Assembly: GCA_002316295.1 (NCBI GenBank)
Contig: DCDF01000240.1
Span: 1-62,492 of the forward strand
Source of the DNA: Syntrophaceae bacterium UBA1062
GTDB taxonomy: Bacteria; Desulfobacterota; Desulfomonilia; UBA1062
Reading direction: 5' to 3'
DNA length: 62,492 bases
In this document: positions 6,351-33,510 of the stretch, piece after piece
Position numbering within the stretch: position 1 is the first letter of the stretch
How the letters are laid out: each line of letters starts with the position of its first letter
Notes under the pieces: generated by a model
What the model was told of the DNA's origin: nothing
Database searches by the model: none
The model's input: the letters and a program-made list of their open reading frames with translations, nothing else
Program-made: the position numbers and the translations under genes

Positions 6351-6415
6351 AAACAAAAGGTCACGGAATATGCTTCCCGGCCTTGAACAGCCAGGCTTTC
6401 GCGCTTTGTCCACTG

Positions 6416-6430: not shown

Positions 6431-6436
6431 TAACCA

Positions 6437-7798: not shown

Positions 7799-7809
7799 AA
7801 CCGCCCCTT

Positions 7810-14957: not shown

Positions 14958-16531
14958 CCTCCTTTGTACGATGGATCGCTCTCCAGCTGGAAAAGAACCG
15001 GACCGCGGTAATTCTTCTCTCCGAACCGCTTGTCCAGTGCGAATTCAGATTTCGGATTGGACCAGGACGTGGCGATGGCAAGATGGCCCTTGGGGAATTC
15101 ACTCACTTCGACATCGATGAAGTCCCGGGGAGCAAGCGCCGTTTCCTTCTCCACCAAGTCATCCCTCTCACCGTAGCAGATGAGCCACTTCACTCCCTTC
15201 TGCGGCAGGCGGTGGAGATCCAGCTTCCTGCCGAAAAGGCGTACCGGCAGAACCCCTTCTGTGGTGATGGGGATGTTGTATGAACGGAAGCTCATCTTGG
15301 TGACCTCAAGAGGCAGGTCGGTCCGTTCATAGGAGAGCCAGTAGTTGATCGCCAGAGCGGTCTTGTTGAATCCATGCTTTGCCTTTCCGTCGGCTGAAAG
15401 CATGACCATGTCCCGATAGAAGCTGATGAGCGGAAACTCGTCGTCGATCGCCCTGAGCTTGTACACCCATCCCATCAGCTTCCCGTCGCCCACCCTGTTC
15501 CCGTTGGGCAAAGTCTTGGTGCCGTAGGCGAGATCGTTGAACCGCGGGGGGAGATTGTTCAGAAATGTGGCAAGCCCCGGGCTCCTGGTCCCGTCCATGG
15601 GGGAGACGCAGGTGATGAGCAAATCCACGAGATTGTCCAGCTCGCCCGAGAGAATCCCGCACAGAGAAGTAAATCCGCCCTGGCAGTATCCACACAGGGT
15701 TACCGGCTTTCCGTGCTCTTTTTTGACGATCTCGGAAAAGTAGGCGGTGTCTCGGACGTCGTCTTCGCCGGTCATGACCTGGAATGCGGGGGTCGTCCAG
15801 ATGTTCTTGGCGATCCGTATGTAGGTCGGTATCCCCCTGTTGGCGAAGGCGTGCACGAAACTCTTGTTGTCTCCGGGGAGAAAGGCGAGGATATTCGTGC
15901 CCAGCACAAACGGGGGGATAATGACGACCGGTTTGCCGTTTTTCCTGACCGATACGTCCGTACGGGAAGGAAGCACCTGGTAGAGCATGAACCTCTCGGT
16001 TTCCCCCGCTTTTCTGTAGCCTTCCTGATCGAAGTGAAATCCGTATTCGCTCCTGATGTTGCGGATGGCCTTGGGATACTCGTACACGACCTTTTCCATG
16101 AGGGCTTCGTGCTCGGAAAGCAGAGACTGAATGTCTTTGCCGTCCCTGGAAAAGACCGTATTGATCCACGCGTCTGTGATTTCTCCGTATCGAGGGAGGT
16201 AGTACTGACCGATAGTGGAGATGCTTGCTTTCAGGGCCCTCTGAGCAAGCTGCACATTCAGCAGGAGCAGCTTGGTGTAGTCCTGGATTGTCTGGGCGGG
16301 AGGGATTTCGAGGATTTTCTTTCTTTCGACAGCCTGGAAATAGCTCGATGAAATGACGAAGGCATCGATAAAGTCATGGAAGTAACGCAGCAGTCCGTTG
16401 AGGTAAACCTGCCCTTCCTTCCCTTGCGCCAGCGAGGCGAGCCACAGTTTCTCCACAGTATCGCTCAAACGCTCCAGGGGCTCCGTCTGAAACATCCGAT
16501 CGTACAGGTACTGGTTTTCGTCAGAAGCCAT
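14954..16531 (-). CDS. PHA synthase-like alpha/beta hydrolase with long N-terminal domain (PhaC2)
   Basis: Lipase-box Cys GYCQGG, Asp (YGERDDLV), His (FPKGHLAI), and PVVIIPPFVLGTNILAFLP resembling the PhaC N-domain. The ATG at 16531 follows AGGAGG+5 nt; the longest ORF starts at 16564. Confidence 0.8.
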   Translation of the reverse strand: MASDENQYLYDRMFQTEPLERLSDTVEKLWLASLAQGKEGQVYLNGLLRYFHDFIDAFVISSSYFQAVERKKILEIPPAQTIQDYTKLLLLNVQLAQRALKASISTIGQYYLPRYGEITDAWINTVFSRDGKDIQSLLSEHEALMEKVVYEYPKAIRNIRSEYGFHFDQEGYRKAGETERFMLYQVLPSRTDVSVRKNGKPVVIIPPFVLGTNILAFLPGDNKSFVHAFANRGIPTYIRIAKNIWTTPAFQVMTGEDDVRDTAYFSEIVKKEHGKPVTLCGYCQGGFTSLCGILSGELDNLVDLLITCVSPMDGTRSPGLATFLNNLPPRFNDLAYGTKTLPNGNRVGDGKLMGWVYKLRAIDDEFPLISFYRDMVMLSADGKAKHGFNKTALAINYWLSYERTDLPLEVTKMSFRSYNIPITTEGVLPVRLFGRKLDLHRLPQKGVKWLICYGERDDLVEKETALAPRDFIDVEVSEFPKGHLAIATSWSNPKSEFALDKRFGEKNYRGPVLFQLESDPSYKGG

Positions 16532-16564
16532 TGTCCCCTCCTGTGCGCGGCCGGGGCCGGTCAT

Positions 16565-18495: not shown

Positions 18496-18966
18496 ATGGC
18501 TGACAGAGAAAAACTCAGGCTGAAAAAATACGGGAACCGGCGCCTGTATGATACGGCCCGGAGCACCTACGTCACGCTGAATCAGGTCGCGGATATCATC
18601 AAGCAGGGAACGGACGTGGAGGTCGTCGACGCGAAGACACAGGAAGATGTGACGGCATTTATTCTCACCCAGATCGTGCTGGAGCAGGCACGGAGAAAAA
18701 ACGCCCTTCTCCCCGTGGAGCTTCTCCATCTGATTATCCGCTATGGCGAAAACCTGCTGCAGGAATTTTTCCAGAAATATCTCGAGCAGACGATCAATGG
18801 GTATCTCCAGTTCAAGAGGTCCATGGACGAGCAGTTCAGCAAATGGATCGATATGCAGCTCAACTATTCGGATATGGCGCAGAAAACGTTTTCCGGACTG
18901 ACTCAATTGCAGAACATCTTCGGCCGGTCCCGGCAGACTCCGGGATCGAAAAACGACAAAGACTGA
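18496..18966 (+). CDS. phaR: PHA synthesis repressor PhaR
   Basis: 156 aa. N-terminal KKYGNRRLYDTARSTYVTLNQVADIIKQG matches the PHB/PHA accumulation regulator DNA-binding domain. Divergent from the phasin-like genes. Confidence 0.9.
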   Translation: MADREKLRLKKYGNRRLYDTARSTYVTLNQVADIIKQGTDVEVVDAKTQEDVTAFILTQIVLEQARRKNALLPVELLHLIIRYGENLLQEFFQKYLEQTINGYLQFKRSMDEQFSKWIDMQLNYSDMAQKTFSGLTQLQNIFGRSRQTPGSKNDKD

Positions 18967-19127: not shown

Positions 19128-20204
19128 TCAGCCGGCGGCCGCCAACCCTGTCAAATCGGAAGCGGCTATCCTGCCCTTTATCGAGTACGCGGCCTCTTCG
19201 ACAAAGGCAAGGGCGGCGGGCCATTCGTGCTGCAGCGCTCTTCTGCCCATGAACACCGAGATGTGACCGGCCAGAGGAATCACCGCCTTGAAAATCTGGT
19301 CCCTGGGCGTTGAAGCATACAATTCGAGATTATGCACCTGGGGTATGAGGGTGATGTCGTCCCGCTCGCCGGCGAGCAGAGCCAGAGGGCACGATATATT
19401 CTGAAGGTCTACGTATTCACAGAGAACCTCCAGCGTGCCCTTGATGAGCCGGTTCTGCATGAAGAGCTTCTCCACTGCCTCGAGGTACCACCGTCCGGAG
19501 ATATCCTGGGTATACTCGTACCAGCGGCTGAATGTTTTTGTCCTCTTCAGATAATTCTCGTCCCTCACGTGTATCCAGAGGTTCAGATAGTCCCGGACGA
19601 ACCGGTCGTAGGCGTTCATCATCTTCCACCCCATGAGCATGAGGTCGCCGGACATGTTCCCCCCGCCGCAGTTTACGAGATACTGATAATACATGAGAGG
19701 AAGTGTATTCACGATATCCTGTATCTTCCCACCTCCGGCCGTGAAATCGATCGGAGCCGCGGCCAGCATGAGGGCACGGACATCTCCGGGAAACAGGGCG
19801 GCATAAATCGTGGCGAGCCATCCGCCCTGGCACAGGCCCGCGAGAACAACGGGCGCGCCCGCCTTTTTCACGCAGAGCATGACCTGCTGCACCAGATCGT
19901 CGATGGTCTCTTCTCTCCTGCTGAGCGTGCTCGATTTCCATTCGATTACATACACCGGACGGGCCGTATGCTTGAGGCATGTCTGAACCAGGCTCTGGCC
20001 GGGGGCATAGTCTGCAATGCTCGAATGGTGGCCAGCCTGGGGAGGGACGATCAGGATCGGGTCTCCTGTGCGGTCCTCATCGAATCTCCTCAAGACAACC
20101 GCCTTATCTTCGAAGATTTTCCTGTTCGGCGATATGAACTCCGGTTTTCCACGCGATGATGCGGTCTGAAAGAACTTCATGAGATCTGCATAAGGCGTAT
20201 TCAT
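19128..20204 (-). CDS. Cys-Asp-His alpha/beta hydrolase, PhaC class III-like or Cys-type intracellular PHA depolymerase (PhaZ-like)
   Basis: 358 aa. GLCQGG box, LAGERDDIT, PLAGHISVFMGRR. PPQAGHH and GHxxxFxGRR recall PhaZ-type depolymerases (from memory only). AAGGAG RBS. Confidence 0.75.
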   Translation of the reverse strand: MNTPYADLMKFFQTASSRGKPEFISPNRKIFEDKAVVLRRFDEDRTGDPILIVPPQAGHHSSIADYAPGQSLVQTCLKHTARPVYVIEWKSSTLSRREETIDDLVQQVMLCVKKAGAPVVLAGLCQGGWLATIYAALFPGDVRALMLAAAPIDFTAGGGKIQDIVNTLPLMYYQYLVNCGGGNMSGDLMLMGWKMMNAYDRFVRDYLNLWIHVRDENYLKRTKTFSRWYEYTQDISGRWYLEAVEKLFMQNRLIKGTLEVLCEYVDLQNISCPLALLAGERDDITLIPQVHNLELYASTPRDQIFKAVIPLAGHISVFMGRRALQHEWPAALAFVEEAAYSIKGRIAASDLTGLAAAG

Positions 20205-20524
20205 GGTGCATCTCCTTGGTGTATGAAATTGTGCCTTGCGGCTGGGGAGCGCTGATAAGAACCGATGATCCCGAGAGGGTACGCCGGTGCTGCCCTTGGT
20301 GCTGATACGGGTGCAAAAACAACTCGTTGATGCCCTTTCACGCCTTTCTTATACATCTTTTCCCAGTGCCAGTCCAGGAAGAAGTTAACACTGTAGAAAT
20401 CTTCGATTATCTGAGAATTTCTCGCAATAGGTTTGTGTTCCAACGTGTTGATATTTGTGAGAAATCGAATCCATCTCCATGAAGCGGTCGCCTTCCGGCC
20501 CACCGCCCGTTTTCTTAATTCCAT
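20201..20524 (-). CDS. hypothetical protein, divergent or truncated phasin-like paralog 4
   Basis: 107 aa from the ATG at 20524. SVNFFLDWHWEKMYKKG compares with SVSFFLD...WGNMYKKG in paralog 2. Its stop overlaps the start of the downstream hydrolase (ATGA). Weak RBS; the start is uncertain. Confidence 0.3.
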   Translation of the reverse strand: MELRKRAVGRKATASWRWIRFLTNINTLEHKPIARNSQIIEDFYSVNFFLDWHWEKMYKKGVKGHQRVVFAPVSAPRAAPAYPLGIIGSYQRSPAARHNFIHQGDAP

Positions 20525-20928
20525 CACGAAACAGCTTCCGGTGCGCTCCCTGTCAGGCCCCTGTGATAGATTCCGCAGCGATCTCGGCGATACCCGCTGT
20601 CCGTATCCGGCCTTGCAGTCCCACCGTCTTGACGGCATCGTCCGGCATGCGGCAGCACTGAGGGCGTGAGACCATCAGGGTGACGGCCCCGGTCACCAGC
20701 TCCTCCCTGACGCGGACGCGGCTGGAGAGGCGCATCCGGTCCCGAGCACATCGGTGAAGAATTTGCCTCAACCGCCGCAGCATAGGTTGTTCTGCATGGC
20801 ACAATCCATCTCACGGACCGAAGCCTCTGCATGAGGCCTCCTCTCACCGAGCAGGAATTCTGCCGCCTGATGATGCCTGTCCACGGCTCCGCTGCCTGCG
20901 GACGGGAATCGCTCGAATTTTCTGTTTC

Positions 20929-21846
20929 TTACTTTGCCTTCACGTCACCGGCGAGGAACCCCGGCTCGCCGTATGAGGGGTTCGGATACTTGTAGAAGCC
21001 TTCCTTGGTCTTGAACCCCAGGAGCCCTTTGTCCACATACCCTTTCAGAAAAGCCGCATTCGCCAGGGCCTGTGGATCGCCGGTCTTCCTGGCCCAGTAA
21101 TCGGTAATGGTATAGACCGTGGAGAGCCCGACCTGGTCCATGATGCCGAAGGGTCCGATCGGGGTGTGCATGACGCCCATCCACGAACGGTCGATGTCCT
21201 CGATAGAAGCCACCCCCTTCGATGCCAGAGAGAGCGAGGAGAAGAACAGGCTCGAAAGCATGGTGTTGAACACATAGCCGTTGTTTTCGCGGTTGAGCGT
21301 AATGACGATCTGCCCGATGCTCCTGGCAAACTCGCGGACGAGCTCGGTCACCTCCGGCGCGGTGCCCGGATGGGGCATGACGTCCACCACGCTGGAGGTC
21401 CGGACGTCATGGAAATGCAGGGCCGCGAACTTCTCCGGCCTGCCCGTCTTGTCCGCGATCATGGAGGGAACCAGCATCGATGTGTTGGTCGTGAAGATAG
21501 TCCTCTCCGGACAGAGCTCGTTGAACTGGTTGAATACCCGGGCTTTGACCGCCGGGTCCTCCGGCACGGACTCGCTGATGAAATCGGCGTCGCGGGCGGC
21601 AAGAGCCGGGTCCGAGGTGCCGGAGATGCGCGCCATGATCTCGCCGAGCTGCTCGGGGGCGATACGGCCTGTGGAGACAAACCACGACCCGAGCTTCTGC
21701 ATGCGGCTGATGGATTTGTCCAGGATCTCCTGGGAAATATCGTACATGACCACAGTGTATCCGTGCATTGCACAGGTGAACCCGATCTGCTGGCCCATCG
21801 TCCCTGCACCGAGGATGAGAACGCGCCTGATGTCGGAAAGTTTCAT
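20929..21846 (-). CDS. hbd: 3-hydroxyacyl-CoA (3-hydroxybutyryl-CoA) dehydrogenase
   Basis: 305 aa. Rossmann motif ILGAGTMGQQIG plus the HAD C-terminal domain. Confidence 0.9.
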   Translation of the reverse strand: MKLSDIRRVLILGAGTMGQQIGFTCAMHGYTVVMYDISQEILDKSISRMQKLGSWFVSTGRIAPEQLGEIMARISGTSDPALAARDADFISESVPEDPAVKARVFNQFNELCPERTIFTTNTSMLVPSMIADKTGRPEKFAALHFHDVRTSSVVDVMPHPGTAPEVTELVREFARSIGQIVITLNRENNGYVFNTMLSSLFFSSLSLASKGVASIEDIDRSWMGVMHTPIGPFGIMDQVGLSTVYTITDYWARKTGDPQALANAAFLKGYVDKGLLGFKTKEGFYKYPNPSYGEPGFLAGDVKAK

Positions 21847-21900
21847 GTCATTTCCTCCTTCAATAGTATGTATGCATCCGCCTTCTGCGGTGATCCGGGC

Positions 21901-22665
21901 TTACGCCAGCGCGCCTCCGTCCACCACGAACGATGCTCCGGTCGTGAAAGGCGCGGCGTCAGAAACCAGATAGAGCACCGCCCCGGCCATCTCCATGGGC
22001 TTCGCATGCCGCCCCATGGGGATCATCTTGACCGCGTAATCGTAGATCATGTCGTTTTCCATGATGGCCTTGGAGAAATGGGTGTCCACCAGGCCGGGTA
22101 GCAGGGCGTTGACCCGGATGTTCTTGGTTGCGAGCTCTTTGGCGAAGGCCTGTGTCATGGAGATGAGGCCGGCCTTGGTGATGGAGTAGATCCCCTGAAA
22201 CGGTGCGGGCTTGACGCCGTTGATGGAGGACACGTTCACGATGGAGCCACCGCCCGCCTCGATCATGAGCTTGGCCGCGTTCTGCACCAGGAAAAAGGGG
22301 CCCTTGAGATTCACGTCGAATGTCTTGTTCCACACCCCTTCGTCCGCGCCGAGCATCTCGCCGAAGTAGGGATTGGTGGCGGCGTTGTTGATGAGGATGT
22401 TGAGCGTGCCGTACTGCCGCCTGATCTTGCCGAAGAGCTCCTGGATCTGACCGAGATCGCCCACGTGGCAGGCCATCACCTCAGCCTTGCCTCCTCGGGA
22501 GGCGATCTTGCCGGCAACGCTTTGCAGGGCCTCCGCCTTTCTGCTCACCAGGATGCAGTGAGCCCCGTAATCGGCCAGAGTCACTGCGATGGCTTCCCCG
22601 ATACCCCTGCTCGCTCCGGTCACCAGGGCGATTTTTCCATCAAGCCGGAAATCTACCTTCTCCAT
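21901..22665 (-). CDS. SDR family oxidoreductase (FabG/LvaD-like)
   Basis: 254 aa. TGASRGIGEAIA, NNAA, and catalytic YSITKAG. Confidence 0.9.
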   Translation of the reverse strand: MEKVDFRLDGKIALVTGASRGIGEAIAVTLADYGAHCILVSRKAEALQSVAGKIASRGGKAEVMACHVGDLGQIQELFGKIRRQYGTLNILINNAATNPYFGEMLGADEGVWNKTFDVNLKGPFFLVQNAAKLMIEAGGGSIVNVSSINGVKPAPFQGIYSITKAGLISMTQAFAKELATKNIRVNALLPGLVDTHFSKAIMENDMIYDYAVKMIPMGRHAKPMEMAGAVLYLVSDAAPFTTGASFVVDGGALA

Positions 22666-22763
22666 ACATTCTCCTCCCGAATTCTCGGAAATTTCTGTTC
22701 GCTCCGCTCAAAGAGAAGACCTCTGCGCCGGGTGGATACTGATATCCCAACCCTTTCGTCTTC

Positions 22764-23831
22764 CTACAGGCCGCCGTTTTTGATGAAATTCAACGCGCTC
22801 TTCTCCAGGATATGAACGCCGAAGATGAGCACACTGAACCGCTCGTCCTTTGTCTGCCCGTGGTAAAACCGGTAGTAGATCTGCTGTGCGATGACCGCGA
22901 GACGGAAAATCCCGAAGCACAGGTAAAAATCGAAGTTGTCGACGGTGATGCCGGCGAGGGTTTCATACCTCCTCACCATCTCGGTGCGGGTCATGGCGCC
23001 GGGGAGTGTGGTTGGAAGCATCCGGGCCGCCTGTAATTCTTCCGGATCGTCGGCCTGGACCCAGTATCCAAGCGAACTGCCCAGGTCCATGAGAGGGTCG
23101 CCTATGGTCGCCATCTCCCAGTCGAGCACGCCGATGATCTCCTGCGGATTTTCGGGGTTCAGCACCACGTTGTCGAACTTGTAGTCGTTGTGGATCACAC
23201 CGGGCTTGGGAGAATCGGGCGGCATCTTCTCGAAAAGCCACTGCATGACGGTTTCGAAGTCCGGGGCGTCCGGAGTGCGCGCGGCCCGGTATCGATCAGA
23301 CCAACCTTCCACCTGCCGTTTCACATACCCTTCTGGCCTGCCGAACCCATCGAGACCGACGGCCTTGTAATCGATCGCATGAAGCTTGTACTGAACATCG
23401 AGGAGATTCTCGCACAGGGTGCGCATCTGCTTTGGAGTGAACTCGAGGCCCTTGGGCAGATTCTTCCTCAGGATGATGCCCGGGATGCGCTCCATCACAT
23501 AGAAGGGGCAGCCCATCACCGACTCGTCCTCGGTGTAGAGCAGCGGCCTGGGACAGTAGGGATACACGCCCTTGAGCGCGCTCAAGATCCGGTACTCCCT
23601 TCCCATGTCGTGGGCGGTCTTGGCCTTCCTGCCGAACGGCGGTCTCCTCAGGACGAGCTCGGTGGCGCCTACGCGTATCAGATAGGTGAGGTTGGAAAAA
23701 CCGCTCGGAAACTGCTCGACGATCATCTCACCCGAGAGCCCCGGTATGGAGCCTCTCAAAAACTCCCCCACCTTGCCGGTGTCGAGCTCTTCACCCTGCC
23801 TGATGTGCACTGCCTTATCGGAAAAATCCAT
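22764..23831 (-). CDS. phosphotransferase (APH/LvaA-like kinase family)
   Basis: 355 aa. Catalytic loop VIHNDYKFDN and DWEMATIGDP. Same architecture as the kinase domains that partner with ACADs. Confidence 0.9.
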   Translation of the reverse strand: MDFSDKAVHIRQGEELDTGKVGEFLRGSIPGLSGEMIVEQFPSGFSNLTYLIRVGATELVLRRPPFGRKAKTAHDMGREYRILSALKGVYPYCPRPLLYTEDESVMGCPFYVMERIPGIILRKNLPKGLEFTPKQMRTLCENLLDVQYKLHAIDYKAVGLDGFGRPEGYVKRQVEGWSDRYRAARTPDAPDFETVMQWLFEKMPPDSPKPGVIHNDYKFDNVVLNPENPQEIIGVLDWEMATIGDPLMDLGSSLGYWVQADDPEELQAARMLPTTLPGAMTRTEMVRRYETLAGITVDNFDFYLCFGIFRLAVIAQQIYYRFYHGQTKDERFSVLIFGVHILEKSALNFIKNGGL

Positions 23832-24531
23832 GGCCCTCCTCCTCTTTCTTCTTCACCAGGATATATGAAAGGATGATATCCATAAGGGACGCCGCATACT
23901 GCTCGACCGTGACCCTGCGCCGTTCGTACTTCCATCTCTTGAGGTACCAATCCTGGAGCATCGCCTTGATGAGAGCGGCGCTCAGCCGGGAGTCCACCTG
24001 CCTGAACGACCCTTCTCTCACGCCCGCCTCAATGATGTCGGCAAAGATCTGCTCGGTGAACAACTCCGCCTCGATGGCCTTCTTGTGGGCTTCTCTGGGC
24101 AGATTCTTGGTTTCCATGTAGGAGAAATAGAACCAGGGCTGAAGGACCTCGCTCAGGTAGAGATGTACCTGTACAGCCGTTTTCAACCTTTCCTGCGGAT
24201 CTTCGACGCCCTCGAGGTTTTCGGTCATCACCCTCAGTATCACGCTCCTGCCCTGCTGCTGGATCATATCCAGGAGCTCTTCCTTGCTTGAAATGTACGA
24301 ATACAGAGCCCCCATGCTCAGACCCGCTTCGCTGCTCAGGTCCCGCAGGCTCATGGAGGCAAAGCCCTTGACGTTGCTGATGGCGAGCGCGGCATCCATG
24401 ATCTTCACCAGATTCCTGACTGCAACTTTCTCTTTCTTGATCTTGATGCGGTCTCTGTTCTCGGCCAGCAGCTCCCGGGAGATGTCCTCCTTGGAAAGCT
24501 GGACCGATTTCCTGAATGTCTCGAATTTCAA
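23815..24531 (-). CDS. TetR family transcriptional regulator
   Basis: 238 aa. N-terminal HTH SMSLRDLSSEAGLSMGALYSYISSKEELL. Overlaps the kinase gene by 17 nt. Confidence 0.9.
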   Translation of the reverse strand: MKFETFRKSVQLSKEDISRELLAENRDRIKIKKEKVAVRNLVKIMDAALAISNVKGFASMSLRDLSSEAGLSMGALYSYISSKEELLDMIQQQGRSVILRVMTENLEGVEDPQERLKTAVQVHLYLSEVLQPWFYFSYMETKNLPREAHKKAIEAELFTEQIFADIIEAGVREGSFRQVDSRLSAALIKAMLQDWYLKRWKYERRRVTVEQYAASLMDIILSYILVKKKEEEGHGFFR

Positions 24532-24547
24532 TGCCGCTCCCCTGTCT

Positions 24548-25756
24548 TCAGCGCACTTCCCGGCCTTCGTATTCCTTCAGGATCCGCCTTGCCAGCGACA
24601 CTTTGTGCACCTCGTCGGCACCGTCGTAGATTCTTGCCGCCCGCTCGTGACGGTAAAAGAAGGGGATGATGATATCGTCGGTCATGCCGAGCCCCCCGTG
24701 GACCTGCAGGGCCTTGTCGATCACGCTCTGCATGACATTGGCGGTAAAGAACTTGATCATGGAGACATCCTGCCTGGCCGCCTTGTTCCCGTACTTCTCC
24801 ATCTTCCAGGCCGTATTGAGAATCATGAGCCGTGCGGCCTGAATATTGGCAGCGCACTCGGAGATCCACGCCTGGATGATCTGCCTGGTGGCGAGGGTCC
24901 TGCCGTCCGGGGTGATGGCTCGTTTGGACGCCCGGGAGCACATGAGATCGAAGCAGCGGTTGCAGATGCCGATCCATCTCATACAGTGGTGGATCCTGCC
25001 CGGGCCGAGGCGTTCCTGTGCGATGATGAACCCATTACCCTCGCCGCCCAGAAGGTTCTTCTGCGGCACGCGGCAGTTCTGGTAGAGGATCTCGCCGTGA
25101 CCCGTGTAATCCGTGCCCGCCTCCCCCATGACCGGGATGTTCCTCACCTGGTTGAAGCCCGGCGTGCTGCAGGGCACGATGATCATGCTCGCCTGGAGGT
25201 AGGTGGGGGCATCGGGATTGGTGACCGCCATGACGATGGCGAACTCGGCGCCGTCGGAGGAGGACGTATACCACTTCTGGCCGTTGATGACATAATCGTC
25301 GCCGTCCTTGACCGCCGTAGTCGCCATCATGACCGGGTTGGAGCCGGGCATCTCCACCTCTGTCATGGAGAAGCAGCTCCTGATCTTTCCTTCGACCAGC
25401 GGCCTCAGGTATTTCTCCTTCTGCTCCGGTGTCCCGTGGAGGTGCAGGATTTCGATGTTGCCGGCGTCGGGTGCCTGGCACCCGAACACATAGTGCCCGA
25501 TAGGTGTCCTGCCGAGCGATTCCGATACGAAGGCATGCTCCACAAGGTTCAATCCCATGCCGCCGTACTCCTTGGGATGGTTCGGCGCCCATAGCTCCAT
25601 CTTCTTGACCATATTGCGCTTTTCCTCGAGGACGGGAAGCATCTCCCTGAAGCTTTTGTTGAGGAATTCCCTCTCCATGGGGATGAGCTCCCTGTCCACG
25701 AACTCGTCGATCATCTCCGTGATCGCCTTGATCTTGTCCGGAACCTCGAAATCCAT
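24548..25756 (-). CDS. acyl-CoA dehydrogenase family protein
   Basis: 402 aa. ACAD fold motifs (CFSMTEVEMPGSN, QVHGGLGMTDD). Confidence 0.9.
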   Translation of the reverse strand: MDFEVPDKIKAITEMIDEFVDRELIPMEREFLNKSFREMLPVLEEKRNMVKKMELWAPNHPKEYGGMGLNLVEHAFVSESLGRTPIGHYVFGCQAPDAGNIEILHLHGTPEQKEKYLRPLVEGKIRSCFSMTEVEMPGSNPVMMATTAVKDGDDYVINGQKWYTSSSDGAEFAIVMAVTNPDAPTYLQASMIIVPCSTPGFNQVRNIPVMGEAGTDYTGHGEILYQNCRVPQKNLLGGEGNGFIIAQERLGPGRIHHCMRWIGICNRCFDLMCSRASKRAITPDGRTLATRQIIQAWISECAANIQAARLMILNTAWKMEKYGNKAARQDVSMIKFFTANVMQSVIDKALQVHGGLGMTDDIIIPFFYRHERAARIYDGADEVHKVSLARRILKEYEGREVR

Positions 25757-25783
25757 ATCCTTACCCTCCTTTTTGGGGTTTGT

Positions 25784-26497
25784 TCACCGGTAGCTCACGA
25801 GCGTGAGCCGGTCGGGGTGAAGATCGAGATGGGCGGAGCAGTTGAAGCACGCCAGGGTGATCCGCCTGCCGTTGTACATGAACTTGGTGTACGATGTATT
25901 GATCACCTGCCAGTTGAGCCGGATGGCCGCGTCCGGAGTCAGTGACAGCGCATACTGCACGGCCGCCGCGATGGGTCCTCCGGAGGTGAACGCAAAAACG
26001 GTCCTGCCCCTTCCCTGCTCCTCCATGATCCGATCGATGGAACCGGACACACGGGCGGAGAACTCCTTCCATGTCTCTACGCCGGGGCTGTCGGACCTGC
26101 CGGACACCCACCGGAGCATGGCGTCTTCAAAGACCCTCTTGAACGATTCCTTGCTCTTGTACATGAGCGGCAAATGATCCGCAAGCCGGGGGTCGTCCGC
26201 CTGCATTCCGGGGAGCTGGGAGAGGACGATGGAGGAGGAATCGAACTCGTCGAGGCCGCTCGAGACATTGACCTCGGGAAGAACGTTTCCGCGTCTCTCA
26301 TAGCATGCCCGAACCTCTTTCTCGGTATCCTTCTGTCGGGTCATTGTTCCGCAGTAGACGGCATCAGGCGTCACCCCGGCTTTACAGAGATGCTCTCCGA
26401 GAATGAATGCCTGCCGCCTGCCCATGGGAGAGAGCCTGTCATAATTTTCCGCACCGAACGATGCCTGCCCGTGACGGATGAGATACAATACGCTCAT
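25784..26497 (-). CDS. histidine phosphatase (phosphoglycerate mutase) family protein
   Basis: RHG motif LYLIRHGQASFG. The ATG at 26497 is preferred over the TTG at 26533, which coincides with a -35-like hexamer. Confidence 0.85.
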   Translation of the reverse strand: MSVLYLIRHGQASFGAENYDRLSPMGRRQAFILGEHLCKAGVTPDAVYCGTMTRQKDTEKEVRACYERRGNVLPEVNVSSGLDEFDSSSIVLSQLPGMQADDPRLADHLPLMYKSKESFKRVFEDAMLRWVSGRSDSPGVETWKEFSARVSGSIDRIMEEQGRGRTVFAFTSGGPIAAAVQYALSLTPDAAIRLNWQVINTSYTKFMYNGRRITLACFNCSAHLDLHPDRLTLVSYR

Positions 26498-26503: not shown

Positions 26504-26533
26504 ACTATACCAAGCCGGGACCGGGCGAGTCAA
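26504..26533 (-). promoter_or_regulatory. candidate sigma-70 promoter, TTGACT-N18-TATAGT
   Basis: The -10 element ends 6 nt before the ATG at 26497, implying a leaderless or near-leaderless transcript. Confidence 0.4.
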
Positions 26534-26566
26534 TAAAAAAAGAACGAACGTTCGATTTTTTTATTG
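26531..26566. promoter_or_regulatory. 36-bp imperfect palindrome (candidate TetR operator)
   Basis: CAATAAAAAAA-GAACGAACGTTCGA-TTTTTTTATTG. The 11-nt arms are perfectly complementary and the core holds the perfect 10-bp palindrome CGAACGTTCG. It lies in the divergent intergenic region and overlaps the -35. Confidence 0.5.
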
Positions 26567-26629: not shown

Positions 26630-27406
26630 GTGAAGATCCTCGTCTGCGTAAAGCAGGTATATGACAGCCCTGATACACTTGTATTCAACGAGTCGTCCGG
26701 TCGGGTGGAGTTCGGCTCTCACACCGTTTTCCGTATGAACCGTTATGACGAATATGCGGTCGAAGAAGCGCTGCGCATCCGCGAGCGAATCACGGGCGTT
26801 GCTGTCGATGCGGTCTCCGTCGGTCCCGACCGGGTCAGGAAAACCATCCGCCGCGCACTGGAGATGGGAGCGGATCACGGCATTCACATACGGACCGGGT
26901 GCGAAACAGATCTCGATCCCCTTGAGCGCGCGCATCTCATCGCCTCTCTGGCACGAGGCAGGCGCTATGATCTCATCCTCACCGGCGTCATGGCGGAAGA
27001 CGACATGCAGTCTCAGGTGGGAGGGCTTCTGGCCGGTATACTTGGATTTACGTGTGCGACCGGCATCATTTCCCTGGAGATGCACGGGAACCCCCGGGAG
27101 ATTCTTCTCGAGCGGGAGATCGAGGGAGGCAGACGGGAATGTCTTACCCTCGGGTTTCCCTGCGTTCTCACCATTCAGTCCGGCATCAATACTCCCAGAT
27201 ATCCCTCGCTTTCGCACGTGCTCAGAGCGCGGTCGGAAGAGCTCGAGCTGATAGAGGCCCCTTCTCCGGCCCCATCGCCGCCTCTCCTGAGCGTCAAGCG
27301 CTTCCTTCTTCCGGAAGAGGGAGAAAAGGGGGAAATCATCACGGGCACGCCCGGCGAGAAGGCGGCGAGGCTCCTGAGCATTCTCCGCGAGCATTCCCTG
27401 CTATAG
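26630..27406 (+). CDS. etfB: electron transfer flavoprotein beta subunit
   Basis: The GTG at 26630 gives VKILVCVKQVYD... (typical EtfB N-terminus) with a GGAGAG RBS. Confidence 0.9.
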   Translation: MKILVCVKQVYDSPDTLVFNESSGRVEFGSHTVFRMNRYDEYAVEEALRIRERITGVAVDAVSVGPDRVRKTIRRALEMGADHGIHIRTGCETDLDPLERAHLIASLARGRRYDLILTGVMAEDDMQSQVGGLLAGILGFTCATGIISLEMHGNPREILLEREIEGGRRECLTLGFPCVLTIQSGINTPRYPSLSHVLRARSEELELIEAPSPAPSPPLLSVKRFLLPEEGEKGEIITGTPGEKAARLLSILREHSLL

Positions 27407-27420: not shown

Positions 27421-28401
27421 ATGATCGAGACCCGGTGCTATGTCATAGCCCTGCACGACAACGGCAGAGTCGCCGAGGAGACGTATGAGACGGCGGCATT
27501 CGCCCGCAGGTACGTCGCCGCGGACCCCTGTGTGGTGGTGCTCTCGGGAGGCGGGGAAATCGAACCCCTCGCCGGGCGCCTGGCGGACAGGACCGGACTA
27601 ACGGTCATCGGCCTTGCCGGGGATATCGTCCGGGAATACTGTGCAGAGGCATACACCGCTTCTCTCATCTCGTTCCTTCGGAAGAAGGGAAACGCGTTCG
27701 TCTGCATTCCCCACACCGCGCGGGGGATCGATTTCGCCCCTCAGCTCTCGGTGGGTATAGGGGCCTGCTGCATAACCGCCGTAGAAGGTGCCGGAGAAGG
27801 CACATTCATCCGATCGGTCTACAGCGGCAGATTCCGCAGCGAGGTGCGGCCGGAGACCCCCTCGGCCGTCCTGACCGTCATGCCGGGGGCGTTCAAGCCT
27901 GAAAAGGGCGCCATGCAGGGCCCGGGAAGCGTGAAGATTGTTCCGCTCAGGGCTTTTGAACTCTCAACGAAAACCCGGGGCACCCGCGAGGCCGTCCATG
28001 CAAACATGACACTGTCCAGGGCCGAGGTCGTCGTATCCGCCGGAAGGGGGCTTGGTTCCGCGGAGAACCTCAGGCTCGTGGAAATGCTCTCGGGAATATT
28101 CCCGAAGTCGGCAATCGGCGCGACTCGGGGTGTGTGCGACTTGGGCTGGCTGGATTACTCTCATCAGATTGGAACCACAGGCAATACCGTCGCTCCCCGG
28201 CTCTATCTGGCCTGCGGCATCTCAGGGGCCGTCCAGCACGTCTCCGGGATGAAGAATTCGCAGCTTATCGTTGCAATCAACACTGACCCCGATGCCTCGA
28301 TTTTCCGCACAGCCCACTTCGGCATTGTGGAGGATCTGAAGGTGTTCATTCCCCTGCTGGTGGATATGTACCGGGAAAAACACGGAGACGGTGACGCATA
28401 A
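27421..28401 (+). CDS. etfA: electron transfer flavoprotein alpha subunit
   Basis: ATG at 27421 after AGGAGG. C-terminal FAD-binding motif PRLYLACGISGAVQHVSGM. Confidence 0.9.
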   Translation: MIETRCYVIALHDNGRVAEETYETAAFARRYVAADPCVVVLSGGGEIEPLAGRLADRTGLTVIGLAGDIVREYCAEAYTASLISFLRKKGNAFVCIPHTARGIDFAPQLSVGIGACCITAVEGAGEGTFIRSVYSGRFRSEVRPETPSAVLTVMPGAFKPEKGAMQGPGSVKIVPLRAFELSTKTRGTREAVHANMTLSRAEVVVSAGRGLGSAENLRLVEMLSGIFPKSAIGATRGVCDLGWLDYSHQIGTTGNTVAPRLYLACGISGAVQHVSGMKNSQLIVAINTDPDASIFRTAHFGIVEDLKVFIPLLVDMYREKHGDGDA

Positions 28402-28435: not shown

Positions 28436-28966
28436 GTGATCTATTCATATAACGGCAAAACACCGGTCATAGGCGAGGGAACATGGATAGCCCCCAATGC
28501 ATACATCATCGGAGATGTGAGAATCGGCAGCCGGTGCTGGATCGGGCCGAGCGCGGTGATCAGAGGCGATTTCGGAGTCATATCCATCGGTGACGAGACT
28601 GCGGTGGAAGACGGGGTGGTGATTCACACTCCCTCTTCTGTGACCATCGGCCGTGCCGTCATCATCGGCCATCTGGCCCTGGTGCACGGGAGCAGGGTGG
28701 GGGATTGCTCGGTGATCGGGATGCATGCGACCCTGGGAGACAATTCCGTGGTGGGGAGCTGGGCGATCATTGCGGAGCACTCGCTGGTGAAGAAAAACCA
28801 GAACGTTCCGGACTACAAGCTCTACGCAGGCTCTCCCGCCGTGGAAAAGGGCGATGTGAGTGAGAGGTACCGCGAGATCATGGCCTTGGGCAAGCAGATG
28901 TATGTGGAGCTGGCCGAACGGTACCGGACCTCGCTCATTGCAGTGCAACCGCCCGACAGAGAGTGA
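28436..28966 (+). CDS. gamma-carbonic-anhydrase-like / hexapeptide-repeat (PaaY-like) protein
   Basis: GTG at 28436 after GGGAGG. Left-handed beta-helix repeats (IGDVRIGSRCWIGPSAVIRGD...). Confidence 0.85.
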   Translation: MIYSYNGKTPVIGEGTWIAPNAYIIGDVRIGSRCWIGPSAVIRGDFGVISIGDETAVEDGVVIHTPSSVTIGRAVIIGHLALVHGSRVGDCSVIGMHATLGDNSVVGSWAIIAEHSLVKKNQNVPDYKLYAGSPAVEKGDVSERYREIMALGKQMYVELAERYRTSLIAVQPPDRE

Positions 28967-29089
28967 CCGGCGGCGGCAGAAAGCCGTCCATCCAAATGAT
29001 GTACCTCAGGCCGATCAGCGGGCTGTCTTCCGAATGAAGCATGAAAACACATCAGGCGTGAATCCGGCCTCATCTCCCTCAGATGCTTC

Positions 29090-29698
29090 CTACCTGATTT
29101 TCTCCAGCTCGTGGATGATCTCTTCGAGAGGCGGTCTCTTGTTGATGTTGTGAAGGGCGATATAGCGGATCTTGCCCTTTTTGTCGACGATGATGATCGT
29201 GCGGTCCGCCATGCCGTCCGATCTGAGCACCCCGTATTTGGCCGCTGCTTCTCCGTGGGGCCAGAAATCGGAGAGGACCGGGAACCACAGCCCCCCCATC
29301 TGCGAGGTCCACGCGTGCAGTGTCGGGATGTTGTCGGTGCTGATGCCCAGGATTACGGCGTTGTGCTTTCTGAACACGTCCTGAGCGATATTGTACCCGG
29401 GCCACTGATCTGAGCAGGCAGGGGTCCATGCTGCCGGAATGAAAGAGACGACCACTGTGTTTTTCCCCCGATAGTCGGACAGGGACACCGTCTTTCCCGA
29501 CAGGGACTTCAGCGTGAAGTCCGGCGCCTGCTCCCCAACCCGCACCTTGAGCAGGCTGTCGGTCGCCTTGAGCGGCCCTGGATCGTAGATCAAGTCCTTC
29601 CTGGCCATCACCGTCGGGGCGACCGCCGCCCCCAGCAAAATAATCAACCCTCCCAGAAGAGCCGCCCTGAATGTCATTTTCATGGCTTTCCTCCTCAT
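29090..29698 (-). CDS. secreted peroxiredoxin (AhpC/TSA-redoxin family)
   Basis: 202 aa. Signal peptide ending VMA, peroxidatic Cys context AAWTPACSDQ. Confidence 0.85.
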   Translation of the reverse strand: MRRKAMKMTFRAALLGGLIILLGAAVAPTVMARKDLIYDPGPLKATDSLLKVRVGEQAPDFTLKSLSGKTVSLSDYRGKNTVVVSFIPAAWTPACSDQWPGYNIAQDVFRKHNAVILGISTDNIPTLHAWTSQMGGLWFPVLSDFWPHGEAAAKYGVLRSDGMADRTIIIVDKKGKIRYIALHNINKRPPLEEIIHELEKIR

Positions 29699-30270
29699 TT
29701 GATCCCCGATTCCTTCACGATCATGTCGAGAAACGCCTCTGCATCGGGAAAAGCACCCGATTTCGAGTACACTATTTCATGAATCGATCCCTCCCTGATC
29801 CGAAGCGCGAAGTAATGCGGGGTGTATATCCCGCTGATCGTGCTCAGTGCAACGGAATCCCTGTCATCGAACATGGGGAAGGGAGACGAGTATTTGTCTT
29901 TGAATATCCCCACCTCATAGCGCGAGTTCCCCACCCCGATGCCAATCATCTTCACTTTGTTCCTGATATCTTTTCTGCTGTCGAGAACGCGAAAGAGCTT
30001 GTTGGCGTCAGGGGCGTGCTTCTGGCAATGAGGGCAGTACATGCTGAAAATCTCTACGATGAGGATCTCTGCGTCGATCTGTCCGAGGGAAATCTTCTCT
30101 TCCTCATCATCAAGCCCGAGGTACTCCCGGTCTCCGGCGGCTTCAGGCGCGTACAGGGTGAGCGCATTCAACGCGCGCAGATGATCGTCCCGCGCCTCCA
30201 GAGTCGATGCCGCACTGAAAAGAACGAGAGCCGCCATTCCCATGCCCGCCATGATAGCAGGAATACGCAT
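29695..30270 (-). CDS. secreted thioredoxin-fold protein (TlpA-like), CPHC motif
   Basis: 191 aa. Signal peptide, then SMYCPHCQKH. 4-nt overlap with the peroxiredoxin gene. Confidence 0.75.
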   Translation of the reverse strand: MRIPAIMAGMGMAALVLFSAASTLEARDDHLRALNALTLYAPEAAGDREYLGLDDEEEKISLGQIDAEILIVEIFSMYCPHCQKHAPDANKLFRVLDSRKDIRNKVKMIGIGVGNSRYEVGIFKDKYSSPFPMFDDRDSVALSTISGIYTPHYFALRIREGSIHEIVYSKSGAFPDAEAFLDMIVKESGIK

Positions 30271-30357
30271 AATCCGGCTCCTAATGGTTCCGGCCCGTAT
30301 TCCCCGGAGAGCACTGTCCTTCCCGAAGAATGCGGACCGGCGGATAGTTGAGAGACC

Positions 30358-30933
30358 TTACCAGTTTTCACCCAGCAGCTCGAAGTGATCCCTCGGGTGA
30401 GCGCAGGCGGCACAGGCCGCAGGGGCTTCCGTTCCCGTGTGCAGATACCCGCAGTTGCGGCATCTCCACACCACCTCGGCATCCCGCTTGAAAACGCGCC
30501 CCTGGTCGATGTTTGCCGCGAGGTCTCTGTAGCGTTTCTCGTGCTGTTTTTCAGCCACGCTGACAGCTTCCCATACCCGGGCGATGGCTTCGAACCCCTC
30601 TTCACGCGCCGTCTTGGCAAAACCCGGATACATCACGGTGTGCTCGTGATTCTCTCCTGCGGCGGCAGCCTTGAGATTCTCCAGGGTCGTGCCGATGACC
30701 CCGGCCGGGAAGCTCGCCTTGATTTCCACCTCTCCTCCTTCGAGGAACTTGAAGAACCGCTTTGCATGCTCTTTTTCCTGATTGGCCGTTTCTTCGAATA
30801 TGTCCGCGATCTGGACATACCCTTCCTTGCGCGCCTGACTCGCAAAGTAGGTATAGCGGTTGCGAGCCTGGGCCTCCCCTGCAAACGACGCAAGGAGATT
30901 CTTTTCTGTCTGCGTCCCGGTCAGTTTTCCCAT
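30358..30933 (-). CDS. rbr: rubrerythrin
   Basis: 191 aa. Diiron ferritin-like E..EH motifs plus a C-terminal rubredoxin domain (CRNCGY...CAACAH). Confidence 0.95.
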
Positions 30934-30945
30934 AAATCCCCCTTT

Positions 30946-31401
30946 CTATTTTCGTAGGATATTGTTTTTCCTGCTGTCATCTCGTATGACTTTTTCTGTA
31001 TTCCCGCTGCGGCATCGGGGGCAGATTCCATAGAGATCCACGGAAAAGCCCTTCACCTCATACCCGGCAATCTTCTCCGCATCTCTCTTGATGGAGTCGA
31101 TACCTGCATTCGCACTCGGGCGGATATCGTCGACCCGATTGCAGACAAGGCACCTGATGTGATGGTGATCGTCCGTTACGGCATCGAACCTTCGCTGTCC
31201 CGAGCCCATATCAAGGCGGCTGATGAGCCCCTGTGATGAGAGGACCTCCAGATTCCGGTATACCGTGCCCAAGCTGATATGCGGAAGGCGCCTTCTGACC
31301 TTCTCGTAGACATCCGAGGCGCTCGGATGCCCGCGGGTTCTGCCGATCTCCTCGAGTATCATGCGTCTCTGCTCTGTCATCCTGTGTTTTTTCAAAGACA
31401 T
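30946..31401 (-). CDS. perR: Fur family regulator, PerR-like
   Basis: 151 aa. HHHIRCLVCNRV and CPRC metal sites. Immediately upstream of rbr. Confidence 0.85.
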   Translation of the reverse strand: MSLKKHRMTEQRRMILEEIGRTRGHPSASDVYEKVRRRLPHISLGTVYRNLEVLSSQGLISRLDMGSGQRRFDAVTDDHHHIRCLVCNRVDDIRPSANAGIDSIKRDAEKIAGYEVKGFSVDLYGICPRCRSGNTEKVIRDDSRKNNILRK

Positions 31402-31461
31402 TCCATTCCCGCCAGGCCGGAGAAAGCCTTCAACCCGGCGTTCCGACCTGGCTTTTACGGT

Positions 31462-31476
31462 TAATGATAATTATTA
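31462..31476. promoter_or_regulatory. Fur/PerR-type 7-1-7 box TAATGAT-A-ATTATTA
   Basis: One mismatched pair. 61-75 nt upstream of the perR start. Confidence 0.5.
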
Positions 31477-31693
31477 CTGTCAGTCAACGACAAATCAAGA
31501 CCTGCATTGGAAAAAATATATAAACAATCGGCATTCCTTTCAGGCTCTCTTCGGGTAAGCCTCTCCTCCCTTCGGATCAATCATTTTCCACAAAAACACG
31601 CATGCGCGAGGTGTTCAGGCCGAATATCCTTCTGCCGGCCATCCGGCGGCGGTTCTCAGCATGTACCGGACAAATCCGCCGGACAGGCAGAGG

Positions 31694-32209
31694 TCATTTC
31701 TTTGTGTATCCCTCAAAGCTCAGAGCCTTCTTTATGATGTTCTTGGCAAAAAACTGTGCATCATCGAGATCGGCCCTGTCCGGATGCGACTTGGCTGATT
31801 GGGCTTCCGCGGCCCACGCCCTGTGCTCCGGCCTGTTCATCAGCTCGTCGATGATTTCCTGCTCCACTCCCCCTCTGCAAGTGAACGAGCCGAGCACCTC
31901 GGCCTTGACCAGGCCGACGGCATTATTGATTGCCTCCTTGGGCATCTGCCCCTCTCTCTGGGAGCCGTGAGTGGAAAACAGGGCCACTTTTGCCTCAGGC
32001 TGAATCTTCTTCAGAAAACTCTGCGCAGCTACGGGAACACTGTGCGCGTGAACGGGAAACCCGCAGAATATGAGATCATATCCTTGGACATCTTCGATCT
32101 CTTTCATGGGCTTGAGAGTCTTGTCGTTTTTGTCCAGAGCCTCGTATATGGCTTCTGCGACCTTCTTGGTATTGCCGGTCTTCGTGTAATAGGCGACCAG
32201 TATCTTCAT
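31694..32209 (-). CDS. flavodoxin family protein
   Basis: MKILVAYYTKTGNTKKVAE N-terminus. The ATG at 32209 follows GGAGAGGAG. Confidence 0.8.
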   Translation of the reverse strand: MKILVAYYTKTGNTKKVAEAIYEALDKNDKTLKPMKEIEDVQGYDLIFCGFPVHAHSVPVAAQSFLKKIQPEAKVALFSTHGSQREGQMPKEAINNAVGLVKAEVLGSFTCRGGVEQEIIDELMNRPEHRAWAAEAQSAKSHPDRADLDDAQFFAKNIIKKALSFEGYTKK

Positions 32210-32440
32210 TCGATTCTCCTCTCCTGATATTTTTATTCTCACAATCTTGTTAAAAATCCCAATAACGGAAGTATAGAGTTAATATCAGAAAAATCAATAG
32301 CATATCTGCGCTCAAGGCATGAGAATCACCTCCCGCCCGCACAAGCAACAGGGTGATGGAGCCTCACGATCGGCTGGCTGCAATCGATCTGAGCTCGTCG
32401 AGTAAAGAAAAAGTGCATGCAAATTTCACCGGGATGCCCT

Positions 32441-32457
32441 ATTATACATTGTATTAT
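32441..32457. promoter_or_regulatory. Fur/PerR-type inverted repeat ATTATACA-T-TGTATTAT
   Basis: 8-1-8 dyad with one mismatched pair. 24 nt upstream of the thioredoxin start. Confidence 0.45.
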
Positions 32458-32480
32458 GAAAATTTGCGGCAGGCGGTGAG

Positions 32481-33496: not shown

Positions 33497-33510
33497 ACGG
33501 GAGAATATCT

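Follow-up and report, generated by a model that had tools for sequence, protein, structure and literature searches.

Six genes at positions 20929-26497 of a 62,492-nucleotide (nt) stretch of DNA from Syntrophaceae bacterium UBA1062 (contig DCDF01000240.1, analysed at its full length and called the window below) probably form a single TetR-repressed operon that channels 4-oxo and 4-hydroxy acyl-CoAs to beta-oxidation through the phosphorylation-elimination route of the Lva and ACAD10/ACAD11 enzymes, a joint reading that we hold with moderate confidence. The genes form a tight string on the minus strand, hisPhos-acad-tetR-aph-sdr-hbd in the order of transcription (26497 to 20929). They encode a histidine-phosphatase-fold protein, an acyl-CoA dehydrogenase (ACAD)-fold protein, a TetR-family regulator, an APH-fold kinase, a classical short-chain dehydrogenase/reductase (SDR) and an Hbd-type 3-hydroxyacyl-CoA dehydrogenase. 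In ACAD10 and ACAD11, in LvaA and LvaC, and in a protein pair from Burkholderia pseudomallei, 4-hydroxyacyl-CoA is phosphorylated and the phosphate is eliminated to give 2-enoyl-CoA, with no external electron acceptor (PMC12440821, PMC11342911). The assignment of the window operon to this route is supported by the signature residues of its ACAD, by the conserved residues of its kinase, and by the recurrent pairing of ACAD, phosphatase-like and SDR genes with related kinases in other genomes.

The string begins with the histidine-phosphatase-fold protein (25784-26497, 237 amino acids; Pfam His_Phos_1, E = 3e-18), for which 26497 is the correct ATG, giving MSVLYLIRHGQ. It continues with the ACAD (24548-25756, 402 amino acids; three ACAD domains, E = 1e-15 to 6e-36), the TetR-family regulator (23815-24531, 238 amino acids; TetR_N and TetR_C_24), the kinase (22764-23831, 355 amino acids; Pfam APH, E = 1e-53) and the SDR (21901-22665, 254 amino acids; E = 1e-62; NCBIfam PRK07035), and ends with the NAD-dependent Hbd-type enzyme (20929-21846, 305 amino acids; NCBIfam PRK08293). 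Successive intergenic distances are 27, 16, -17, 98 and 54 nt, the negative value being an overlap of the TetR and kinase genes. A prediction made earlier from the letters of the window had described the first five genes as co-directional and partly overlapping, with etfBA divergent from them, and it was correct on positions and families, the latter backed by strong matches. It was equally correct on the divergent orientation of etfB (26630-27406) and etfA (27421-28401) on the plus strand, on the kinase strings HNDYKFDN (residue 214) and DWEM (237), and on the succession of this module, hbd and a PhaC/PhaZ-like alpha/beta hydrolase gene (19128-20204). Identical proteins in identical order were found on six independent contigs from metagenomes and metagenome-assembled genomes, so the arrangement is real and not an accident of assembly.

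In the PDB the window ACAD comes closest to ACAD11, the human protein scoring 270 bits and the mouse protein 262 bits (2wbi, E = 3.5e-79; 8v3u), and the Mycobacterium abscessus protein 4hr3 is also among the best solved relatives. Ordinary ACADs reach at most 167 bits in the same ranking. The alignment with ACAD11 shows ERLGPGRIHHCMRW and RIYDGADEVH. The phosphate-pocket motif reads R249-LGPGRIH-H257-C-M-R260, in which R249, H257 and R260 are the equivalents of R626, H634 and R637 of mouse ACAD11. RIYDGADEV places D378 opposite D753 of the mouse protein (LRLADGPDEV), an Asp that replaces the canonical Glu of ACADs. Residues of this type are confined to ACAD10/11 and LvaC and are required for the handling of 4-phosphoacyl-CoA, the corresponding residues of ACAD11 having been shown or argued to be essential (Rashan et al., PMC12440821). 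In a comparison with sequence snippets, the window ACAD also shares the motifs APD.GN.E (C.APD.GN.E with LvaC) and QxRLGPG with LvaC and the Burkholderia enzyme. We predict that the window ACAD is an enzyme of the ACAD10/11/LvaC type that eliminates phosphate from 4-phosphoacyl-CoA.

A scan with one genome per species gave 80 related loci with kinases at 43-67% identity to that of the window, and we searched these loci by tblastn with the window proteins; since the 80 are the best matches, the sample leans to the window's own kinase clade. These loci span Desulfobacterota, SAR324, Gammaproteobacteria, Actinomycetota, Bacteroidota, Acidobacteriota, Myxococcota, Planctomycetota, Chloroflexota and others. 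In 51 of them the kinase gene has, within 6 kb, an ACAD with both signature motifs, usually directly upstream on the same strand. The HCMR motif and its upstream Arg are present in all 51 of these kinase-adjacent ACADs and missing from the generic ACADs of the same loci. In a neighbour-joining tree the motif-bearing ACADs, ACAD11 included, are monophyletic with respect to generic ACADs and split into two sister subclades, c1 and c2, whose placement is rough because the tree was built from tblastn segments. Subclade c1 comprises the window and 22 loci, carries RIYDG and APD[A/V/I]GN, is 38-39% identical to ACAD11 and is spread over at least seven phyla. Subclade c2 comprises ACAD11, 4hr3 and 28 loci, carries RLADGPDEV and APD[T/S]GNME, and is 54-57% identical to ACAD11. 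The window ACAD, with APDAGNIE and RIYDG, has the c1 form; ACAD10, Pseudomonas putida LvaC (APDTGNME) and the B. pseudomallei enzyme were assigned to c2 from motif snippets only (Paquay et al. supplement). The earlier prediction had named clustering with the LvaC and ACAD10/11 clades as a check; the ACAD groups with ACAD11 against ordinary ACADs, but in the sister subclade c1 and not in c2 with the tested enzymes.

The closest solved relative of the kinase is PDB 9o56 (E = 3.4e-101, 47% identity), followed by Cupriavidus 3dxp (3e-50) and the kinase domain of ACAD11 (1e-46). In a tree of the kinases, the window protein, those of all 80 loci and 9o56 fall together, with the ACAD11 kinase and 3dxp as their sister group. 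The residue numbering of 9o56 agrees with that of the "ACAD10 kinase" homologue from Caldalkalibacillus thermarum reported by Ye et al. (PMC13596139, a preprint), and every catalytic residue mutated in that enzyme is kept in the window protein: R62, E79, D216, K218, N221, D237 and E239 correspond to R61, E78, D214, K216, N219, D234 and E236. The kinase core (HxDxK..N, DWE, the beta3 Arg and the alphaC Glu) is complete. R172, within KRQVEGW, is the counterpart of the CoA-contacting R176 of ACAD11, and both R172 and R78, which stands beside E79, are invariant in the window protein, 9o56, 3dxp and ACAD11; the equivalence of R78 with ACAD11 R86 rests on sequence context, the alignment numbering there being offset by two. 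Only the TetR gene separates the kinase from the signature-bearing ACAD. The APH-fold protein is predicted to be a 4-hydroxyacyl-CoA kinase of the ACAD10/11 type, and the earlier assignment of kinase and ACAD to this family is supported by the ACAD11 scores, by R249, HCMR (257-260) and D378, and by the intact catalytic residues of the kinase. In a related Desulfomonilia genome (L009/L010; ERZ27315036 k141_71804) the kinase gene is duplicated in tandem and the operon is otherwise identical.

The SDR passes the cutoff of NCBIfam PRK07035 (398 against 373 bits), and its nearest structures are human and pig DHRS4. Its Gly motif TGASRGIG and its VSRK are typical of NADP(H)-preferring classical SDRs and thus fit a reductive role like that of LvaD; we infer that it would act as the 4-oxoacyl-CoA reductase. 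SDR orthologues, 40-65% identical, adjoin the kinase gene in 23 of the 80 loci at a threshold of at least 40% identity. The Hbd-type protein passes PRK08293 (351 against 312 bits) and recurs, at the same threshold, in six of the 80 loci, including Bacteroidota. Its orthologues, 43-65% identical, directly follow the kinase gene in Desulfobacteraceae and Bacteroidota loci devoid of polyhydroxyalkanoate (PHA) genes, the order SDR-ACAD-kinase-Hbd recurring in the Bacteroidota. The same position is found in two clusters, L091 and L092, that were recovered by reverse look-up from phosphatase homologues and have the arrangement etfAB, divergent from phosphatase-ACAD-(TetR)-kinase-(SDR)-Hbd. One of these adjoins fadB-like, thiolase and MaoC genes, and the other an acyl-CoA ligase gene. 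This distribution indicates that Hbd belongs to the kinase module and not to the PHA locus.

The histidine-phosphatase-fold protein had been regarded as an additional, unexplained member of the module. It is instead a regular partner, with a homologue adjoining the kinase in 41 of the 80 loci, and its presence in such a cluster has a precedent: a histidine phosphatase family gene lies between the lvaA and lvaC homologues of the Pseudomonas citronellolis levulinate cluster, at the position of P. putida lvaB, and was suggested by the authors to act on 4-phosphovaleryl-CoA (PMC6692424). The AlphaFold2 model of the window protein (pLDDT 92.5) has the histidine-phosphatase fold, and its top Foldseek matches, 17-23% identical to it, are PhoE, PGAM and phosphoserine phosphatases of the metal-independent kind; a sequence search of the PDB gave no match at E 1e-3. 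The protein retains R8-H9-G (the RHG motif with the nucleophile His), R54 and E84, and Ser172 occupies the position of the second catalytic His, "tsGG" aligning with the canonical "SHG" or "gHGG". A profile search of 1.84 billion cluster representatives yielded, at E 1e-30 or better, 1,111 members of the family. In the 147 representatives examined, Ser172 is without exception conserved (147 of 147), R8, H9, R54, E84 and N200 are likewise invariant, and the Ser is also found in all 43 kinase-adjacent homologues. Judged by these residues, the kinase-associated proteins are a distinct subfamily of about 1,100 representatives in which TSGG replaces SHGG. Most likely the window protein either hydrolyses stray 4-phospho intermediates at low turnover or serves the kinase as an accessory or regulatory protein, a partner or a brake. 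The second of these roles would parallel that of the HAD domain of ACAD10, which is catalytically incomplete and restrains the kinase (PMC11342911), although the two folds differ. In the Pseudomonas clusters a 104-amino-acid SCP2-domain protein is encoded between phosphatase and kinase (9429-9743 in locus L025). LvaB is similar to it in size, which we note only as a lead.

The proteins that recur beside the bacterial kinase resemble those of peroxisomes: the SDR is nearest to DHRS4, and the Pseudomonas clusters carry the SCP2-domain protein. A search of the literature for a functional link between DHRS4 and ACAD11 found only their co-listing in peroxisome inventories.

The 132-bp region between hisPhos and the divergent etfB holds the putative control elements of the operon. 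A sigma-70-like promoter on the minus strand (26504-26533; TTGACT, 18 nt, TG-TATAGT) matches at 10 of 12 positions, has an extended -10 element and ends 7 nt short of the hisPhos ATG. An operator-like inverted repeat (26531-26566), with the core palindrome CGAACG-NN-CGTTCG at 26541-26554, overlaps this promoter. The promoter scan as a whole did not rise above chance (4 sites found, 3.4 expected), and this promoter gains weight from the conservation, in relatives, of a TTGAC box beside the palindrome: in seven of seven TetR-carrying lineages (L001, L007, L009, L011, L012, L013, L014) the palindrome lies at the equivalent position, 7-10 nt upstream of the TTGAC box. The TetR protein, whose best NCBIfam match is a weak one to Bacillus FadR, is the probable repressor of the operon. 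Its orthologues hold the same operon position in L007-L014 and L092, and a TetR gene lies near the kinase in four of the 80 loci. No further operator copies above chance were found near the PHA genes, near the etf genes or in the rest of the window, 26541-26554 being the only good copy. The SAR324 locus L014 has four copies (at 4164, 7841, 11126 and 14360), which precede a second tetR with an amidohydrolase gene (amidohydrolase_2), the ACAD, an FGGY kinase and a DHRS4-like SDR, after which come a FadH-like 2,4-dienoyl-CoA reductase and a CoA-transferase of family III. Through these copies the amidohydrolase, the FGGY kinase, the reductase and the CoA-transferase are linked to the same regulon.

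The divergent etfB and etfA and the gene after them, which encodes a hexapeptide protein (28436-28966, plus strand), share the operator region and are probably co-regulated with the operon. Phylogenetic footprinting, though short of proof, speaks for a single regulon made up of the operon and the divergent etf genes, with the PHA locus outside it. etfBA is adjacent in L011-L014 and L044, five of the 80 loci, and in L091 and L092. The hexapeptide protein resembles PaaY, CaiE and gamma-carbonic anhydrases and may have a proofreading function; PaaY is known as a CoA-thioester hydrolase. In L092 (10928-14500) the SDR between kinase and Hbd is replaced by a FAD oxidase that is GlcD-like and has flanking CCG and Fe-S subunits. 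The adjacent electron-transfer flavoprotein (ETF) could thereby be explained as partnering a hydroxy-acid dehydrogenase.

In the proposed pathway, the NADPH-type SDR would reduce 4-oxoacyl-CoA to 4-hydroxyacyl-CoA, and the kinase would phosphorylate the 4-hydroxyl group with ATP, as suggested by its homology and its conserved catalytic and CoA-binding residues. The ACAD, using FAD, Asp378 and the R249/H257/R260 pocket, would then eliminate phosphate to yield 2-enoyl-CoA and some 3-hydroxyacyl-CoA, the latter being a likely substrate for the Hbd enzyme, which by its family would produce 3-oxoacyl-CoA. TetR would bind CGAACG-NN-CGTTCG over the -35 box and probably sense acyl-CoA. Operation in the opposite sense, from 3-hydroxyacyl-CoA to 4-hydroxy acids, had also been considered; it is unlikely because the elimination of phosphate is effectively irreversible.

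The same logic, from 4-oxoacyl- through 4-hydroxyacyl- and 4-phosphoacyl- to enoyl- or 3-hydroxyacyl-CoA, is found in the lvaABCDE levulinate operon of P. putida KT2440 (Rand et al. 2017, as described in PMC12440821, PMC11342911 and PMC6692424), in which an APH-type kinase, an ACAD-fold eliminase and an SDR are likewise encoded by separate genes of one operon. By gene content the window operon differs in having neither an LvaB-like small protein nor an LvaE ligase, in its TetR regulator in place of the sigma-54 LvaR, and in the added phosphatase-like and hbd genes. An AMP-binding ligase gene (4096-5703) and a sigma-54 two-component pair (6437-9579) are present in the window in a separate cluster 15-20 kb away. 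The P. citronellolis LA18T levulinate cluster, also compared by gene content, has homologues of LvaA, LvaC and LvaD together with the histidine phosphatase; the genes stand in the order kinase, phosphatase, ACAD, SDR and are accompanied by a regulator of the sigma-54 LvaR type and by LvaE2, a dedicated ligase, and the host is an aerobic gammaproteobacterium (PMC6692424). Kinase and ACAD are also split between two genes in B. pseudomallei (Q63VL0 and Q63VL1, respectively), whose proteins replace the kinase and ACAD parts of ACAD10 in vitro on 4-hydroxyhexanoyl-CoA (PMC11342911). For a bacterial version made of two proteins, this pair offers the best precedent from experiment. It is nearer to ACAD10 than LvaA and LvaC are, and its ACAD snippet is of the c2 form (PMC11342911), in contrast to the window ACAD; the related kinase of Cupriavidus, 3dxp, shares only 32% identity with the window kinase and falls with the kinase of ACAD11, not with that of the window. 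Mammalian ACAD10 and ACAD11 match the window proteins in the ACAD signature residues and the kinase core (HxDxK..N, DWE, beta3 Arg), but they are fusion proteins, with an additional HAD domain in ACAD10, whereas the window genes are separate; ACAD11 is 38-39% identical to the window ACAD and 32-33% to the window kinase.

The original prediction had further wired the module to the PHA locus that lies beyond hbd. This locus is genuine and comprises PhaE (10598-11482), followed by a class III PhaC of 421 amino acids (11499-12764; 443 bits, cutoff 365), a PhaR-like gene (18496-18966), a GAF protein, a MaoC hydratase, small phasin-like open reading frames and two other PhaC-like proteins with a Cys box. 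Within 9 kb there are three alpha/beta hydrolases that are PhaC-like and have a G-x-C-x-G-G box, at 11499-12764, 14954-16564 (536 amino acids) and 19128-20204 (358 amino acids). Only the 421-residue protein passes the class III cutoff, the other two being unclassified, and the 358-residue protein, which was considered as a depolymerase, has a G-L-C-Q-G-G box as synthases do. It could be argued from this neighbourhood that the same chemistry serves PHA metabolism, with 4-hydroxybutyryl- or 4-hydroxyvaleryl-CoA, derived from PHA or destined for it, being converted to enoyl- and 3-hydroxyacyl-CoA for the PhaJ-like MaoC protein and PhaC. The neighbourhood is retained in three Desulfomonilia lineages with 75-83% kinase identity, and engineered lva genes are reported to have made PHA containing 4-hydroxyvalerate and 3-hydroxyvalerate in Escherichia coli (PMC9628823). 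Synteny among such close relatives is, however, what descent alone predicts, and it is confined to them: none of the 80 loci has a PhaC, PhaE, PhaR or PhaC-like protein within 10 kb, and the four nearest relatives outside the Desulfomonilia keep etfBA, ACAD, TetR and kinase and carry no PHA genes. In the window, a 724-nt untranslated stretch (20205-20928) separates hbd from the PhaC-like gene, and no operator copy stands near the PHA promoters. An Rfam scan of the window, the 724-nt gap included, matched only the tRNA at 10268-10339, and a terminator scan downstream of hbd, itself at chance level, gave no convincing site. Finally, Hbd recurs where PHA genes are absent, and enzymes of the Hbd type produce and consume (S)-3-hydroxyacyl-CoA, while it is the (R) form that PHA synthases require. 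Because of this mismatch and the lack of PHA genes in relatives outside the group, the link to PHA is unsupported and we consider a function in PHA metabolism unlikely; the PHA genes look like a lineage-specific neighbour and not like part of the operon unit.

Several observations weigh against the assignment to the Lva/ACAD10-11 route. The window ACAD lies outside the subclade that contains the biochemically tested ACAD10, ACAD11, LvaC and B. pseudomallei enzymes. We know of no characterised c1 enzyme, the tested ones all carrying the c2 signature (APD[T/S]GNME, RLADG). The phosphatase-like protein has no canonical second catalytic His, and 13 Pseudomonas loci have kinase, SDR and phosphatase genes with no ACAD gene within 10 kb. 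By gene content the operon (20929-26497) includes no enoyl-CoA hydratase, acyl-CoA ligase or LvaB-like gene. The conserved divergent etfBA is not required by the known ACAD10/11 reaction, which needs no external electron acceptor (PMC12440821, PMC11342911), and is thus not explained by that chemistry. Lastly, the kinase falls in the clade of 9o56 (47% identity) and not in that of the ACAD11 kinase and 3dxp (32-33%), and the sole activity reported for the 9o56 clade is the acetyl-CoA-stimulated phosphorylation of 1-O-alkylglycerol, the only one for which the preprint characterises the C. thermarum enzyme (PMC13596139).

This last point leads to a different view of the kinase, as a lipid-alcohol kinase acting on 1-O-alkylglycerol or monoacylglycerol, with the phosphatase-like protein acting on the lipid phosphate in a salvage of ether lipids or glycerolipids. 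Besides the conservation of every residue mutated by Ye et al., it can draw on the report that prokaryotic homologues phosphorylate chimyl alcohol and are activated by CoA or acetyl-CoA and on the alkylglycerol kinase activity reported for ACAD10 itself (PMC13596139), as well as on the parallel between the phosphatase partner and the ACAD10 HAD domain and on the lipid-binding SCP2 protein added in the Pseudomonas clusters. The genes to which the kinase is chained nevertheless speak for another substrate: a phosphate-pocket ACAD, Hbd and an acyl-CoA-type TetR have no role in alkylglycerol salvage, nor have the fadB, thiolase, CoA-transferase and dienoyl-CoA-reductase-like genes near the kinases of relatives. 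A CoA requirement is equally explained by a CoA-thioester substrate, and the authors of the preprint call the relation between the two activities unclear (PMC13596139). As every conserved neighbour is an acyl-CoA enzyme and the CoA dependence fits a CoA-thioester substrate, we rate the lipid-alcohol function as very improbable. We give hardly any credence to the view that the c1 ACAD carries out an ETF-coupled net oxidation (alpha,beta-dehydrogenation or release of a 2,4-dienoyl-CoA), the kinase and phosphatase being regulatory or devoted to an unrelated substrate. It would account for the regulatory region that etfBA shares with the operon in every delta-lineage relative examined, for the Tyr of the canonical Y-E-G motif that c1 keeps as Y-D-G, and for the FadH-like 2,4-dienoyl-CoA reductase under the same operator in SAR324 locus L014; long-chain dehydrogenase activity was also at one time ascribed to ACAD11 (cited in PMC12440821). 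The Asp in place of the catalytic Glu and the fully conserved Arg/His/Arg cluster, however, make no sense in a hydrophobic acyl pocket (PMC12440821), etfBA is adjacent in just five of the 80 loci, and the ETF of L092 could serve the GlcD-like oxidase instead.

A more speculative and, in our estimate, rather unlikely variant of the phosphorylation-elimination route is that the c1 ACAD, the Ser172 phosphatase-like partner and the co-regulated ETF constitute a mechanistically distinct branch of it. The phosphatase-fold protein could then be the counterpart of LvaB or of the ACAD10 HAD domain, a partner or brake of the kinase and not a simple hydrolase, and the ACAD could pass electrons to ETF and release dienoyl-CoA. 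In Desulfomonilia such a branch could connect 4-hydroxyalkanoates with PHA turnover, standing in for 4-hydroxybutyryl-CoA dehydratase as an ATP-driven route that tolerates oxygen.

The phosphorylation-elimination route for 4-hydroxy acids has been worked out recently, from a handful of enzymes of aerobes and mammals. The window locus shows the same machinery in strictly anaerobic Desulfobacterota, an unexpected host, and reveals beside the tested enzymes a large sister subclade of ACADs in at least seven phyla. The comparative data define a recurrent set of bacterial partners, consisting of an SDR like DHRS4, the Ser variant of a histidine-phosphatase-fold protein, Hbd and, in some cases, SCP2. 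This set bears on two questions about the mammalian enzymes, namely the purpose of the phosphatase-like domain of ACAD10 and the identity of the reductase that makes 4-hydroxyacyl-CoA from 4-oxo acids, for which DHRS4, peroxisomal as is ACAD11, is a candidate. The data also bear on the dispute over the true substrate of the kinase family, 4-hydroxyacyl-CoA or alkylglycerol.

The window contains other gene groups of note. Beside etfBA, at about 28900-33900, lies an oxidative-stress set that is conserved at this place in Desulfomonilia relatives and comprises two AhpC/TSA-like genes, a rubrerythrin, a Fur/PerR-like gene, a flavodoxin, a thioredoxin, DsbD and a redoxin. A separate acyl-CoA cluster (355-9579) encodes an epimerase/dehydratase, an SCPx-type thiolase, a generic ACAD and an AMP-binding ligase, and adjoins the genes of a sigma-54 response regulator and a PAS histidine kinase. 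This second ACAD of the window (2680-3945) was considered as another ACAD10/11-type enzyme and rejected, both motifs being missing from it. The tRNA gene (10268-10339) lies between the histidine kinase gene and phaE.

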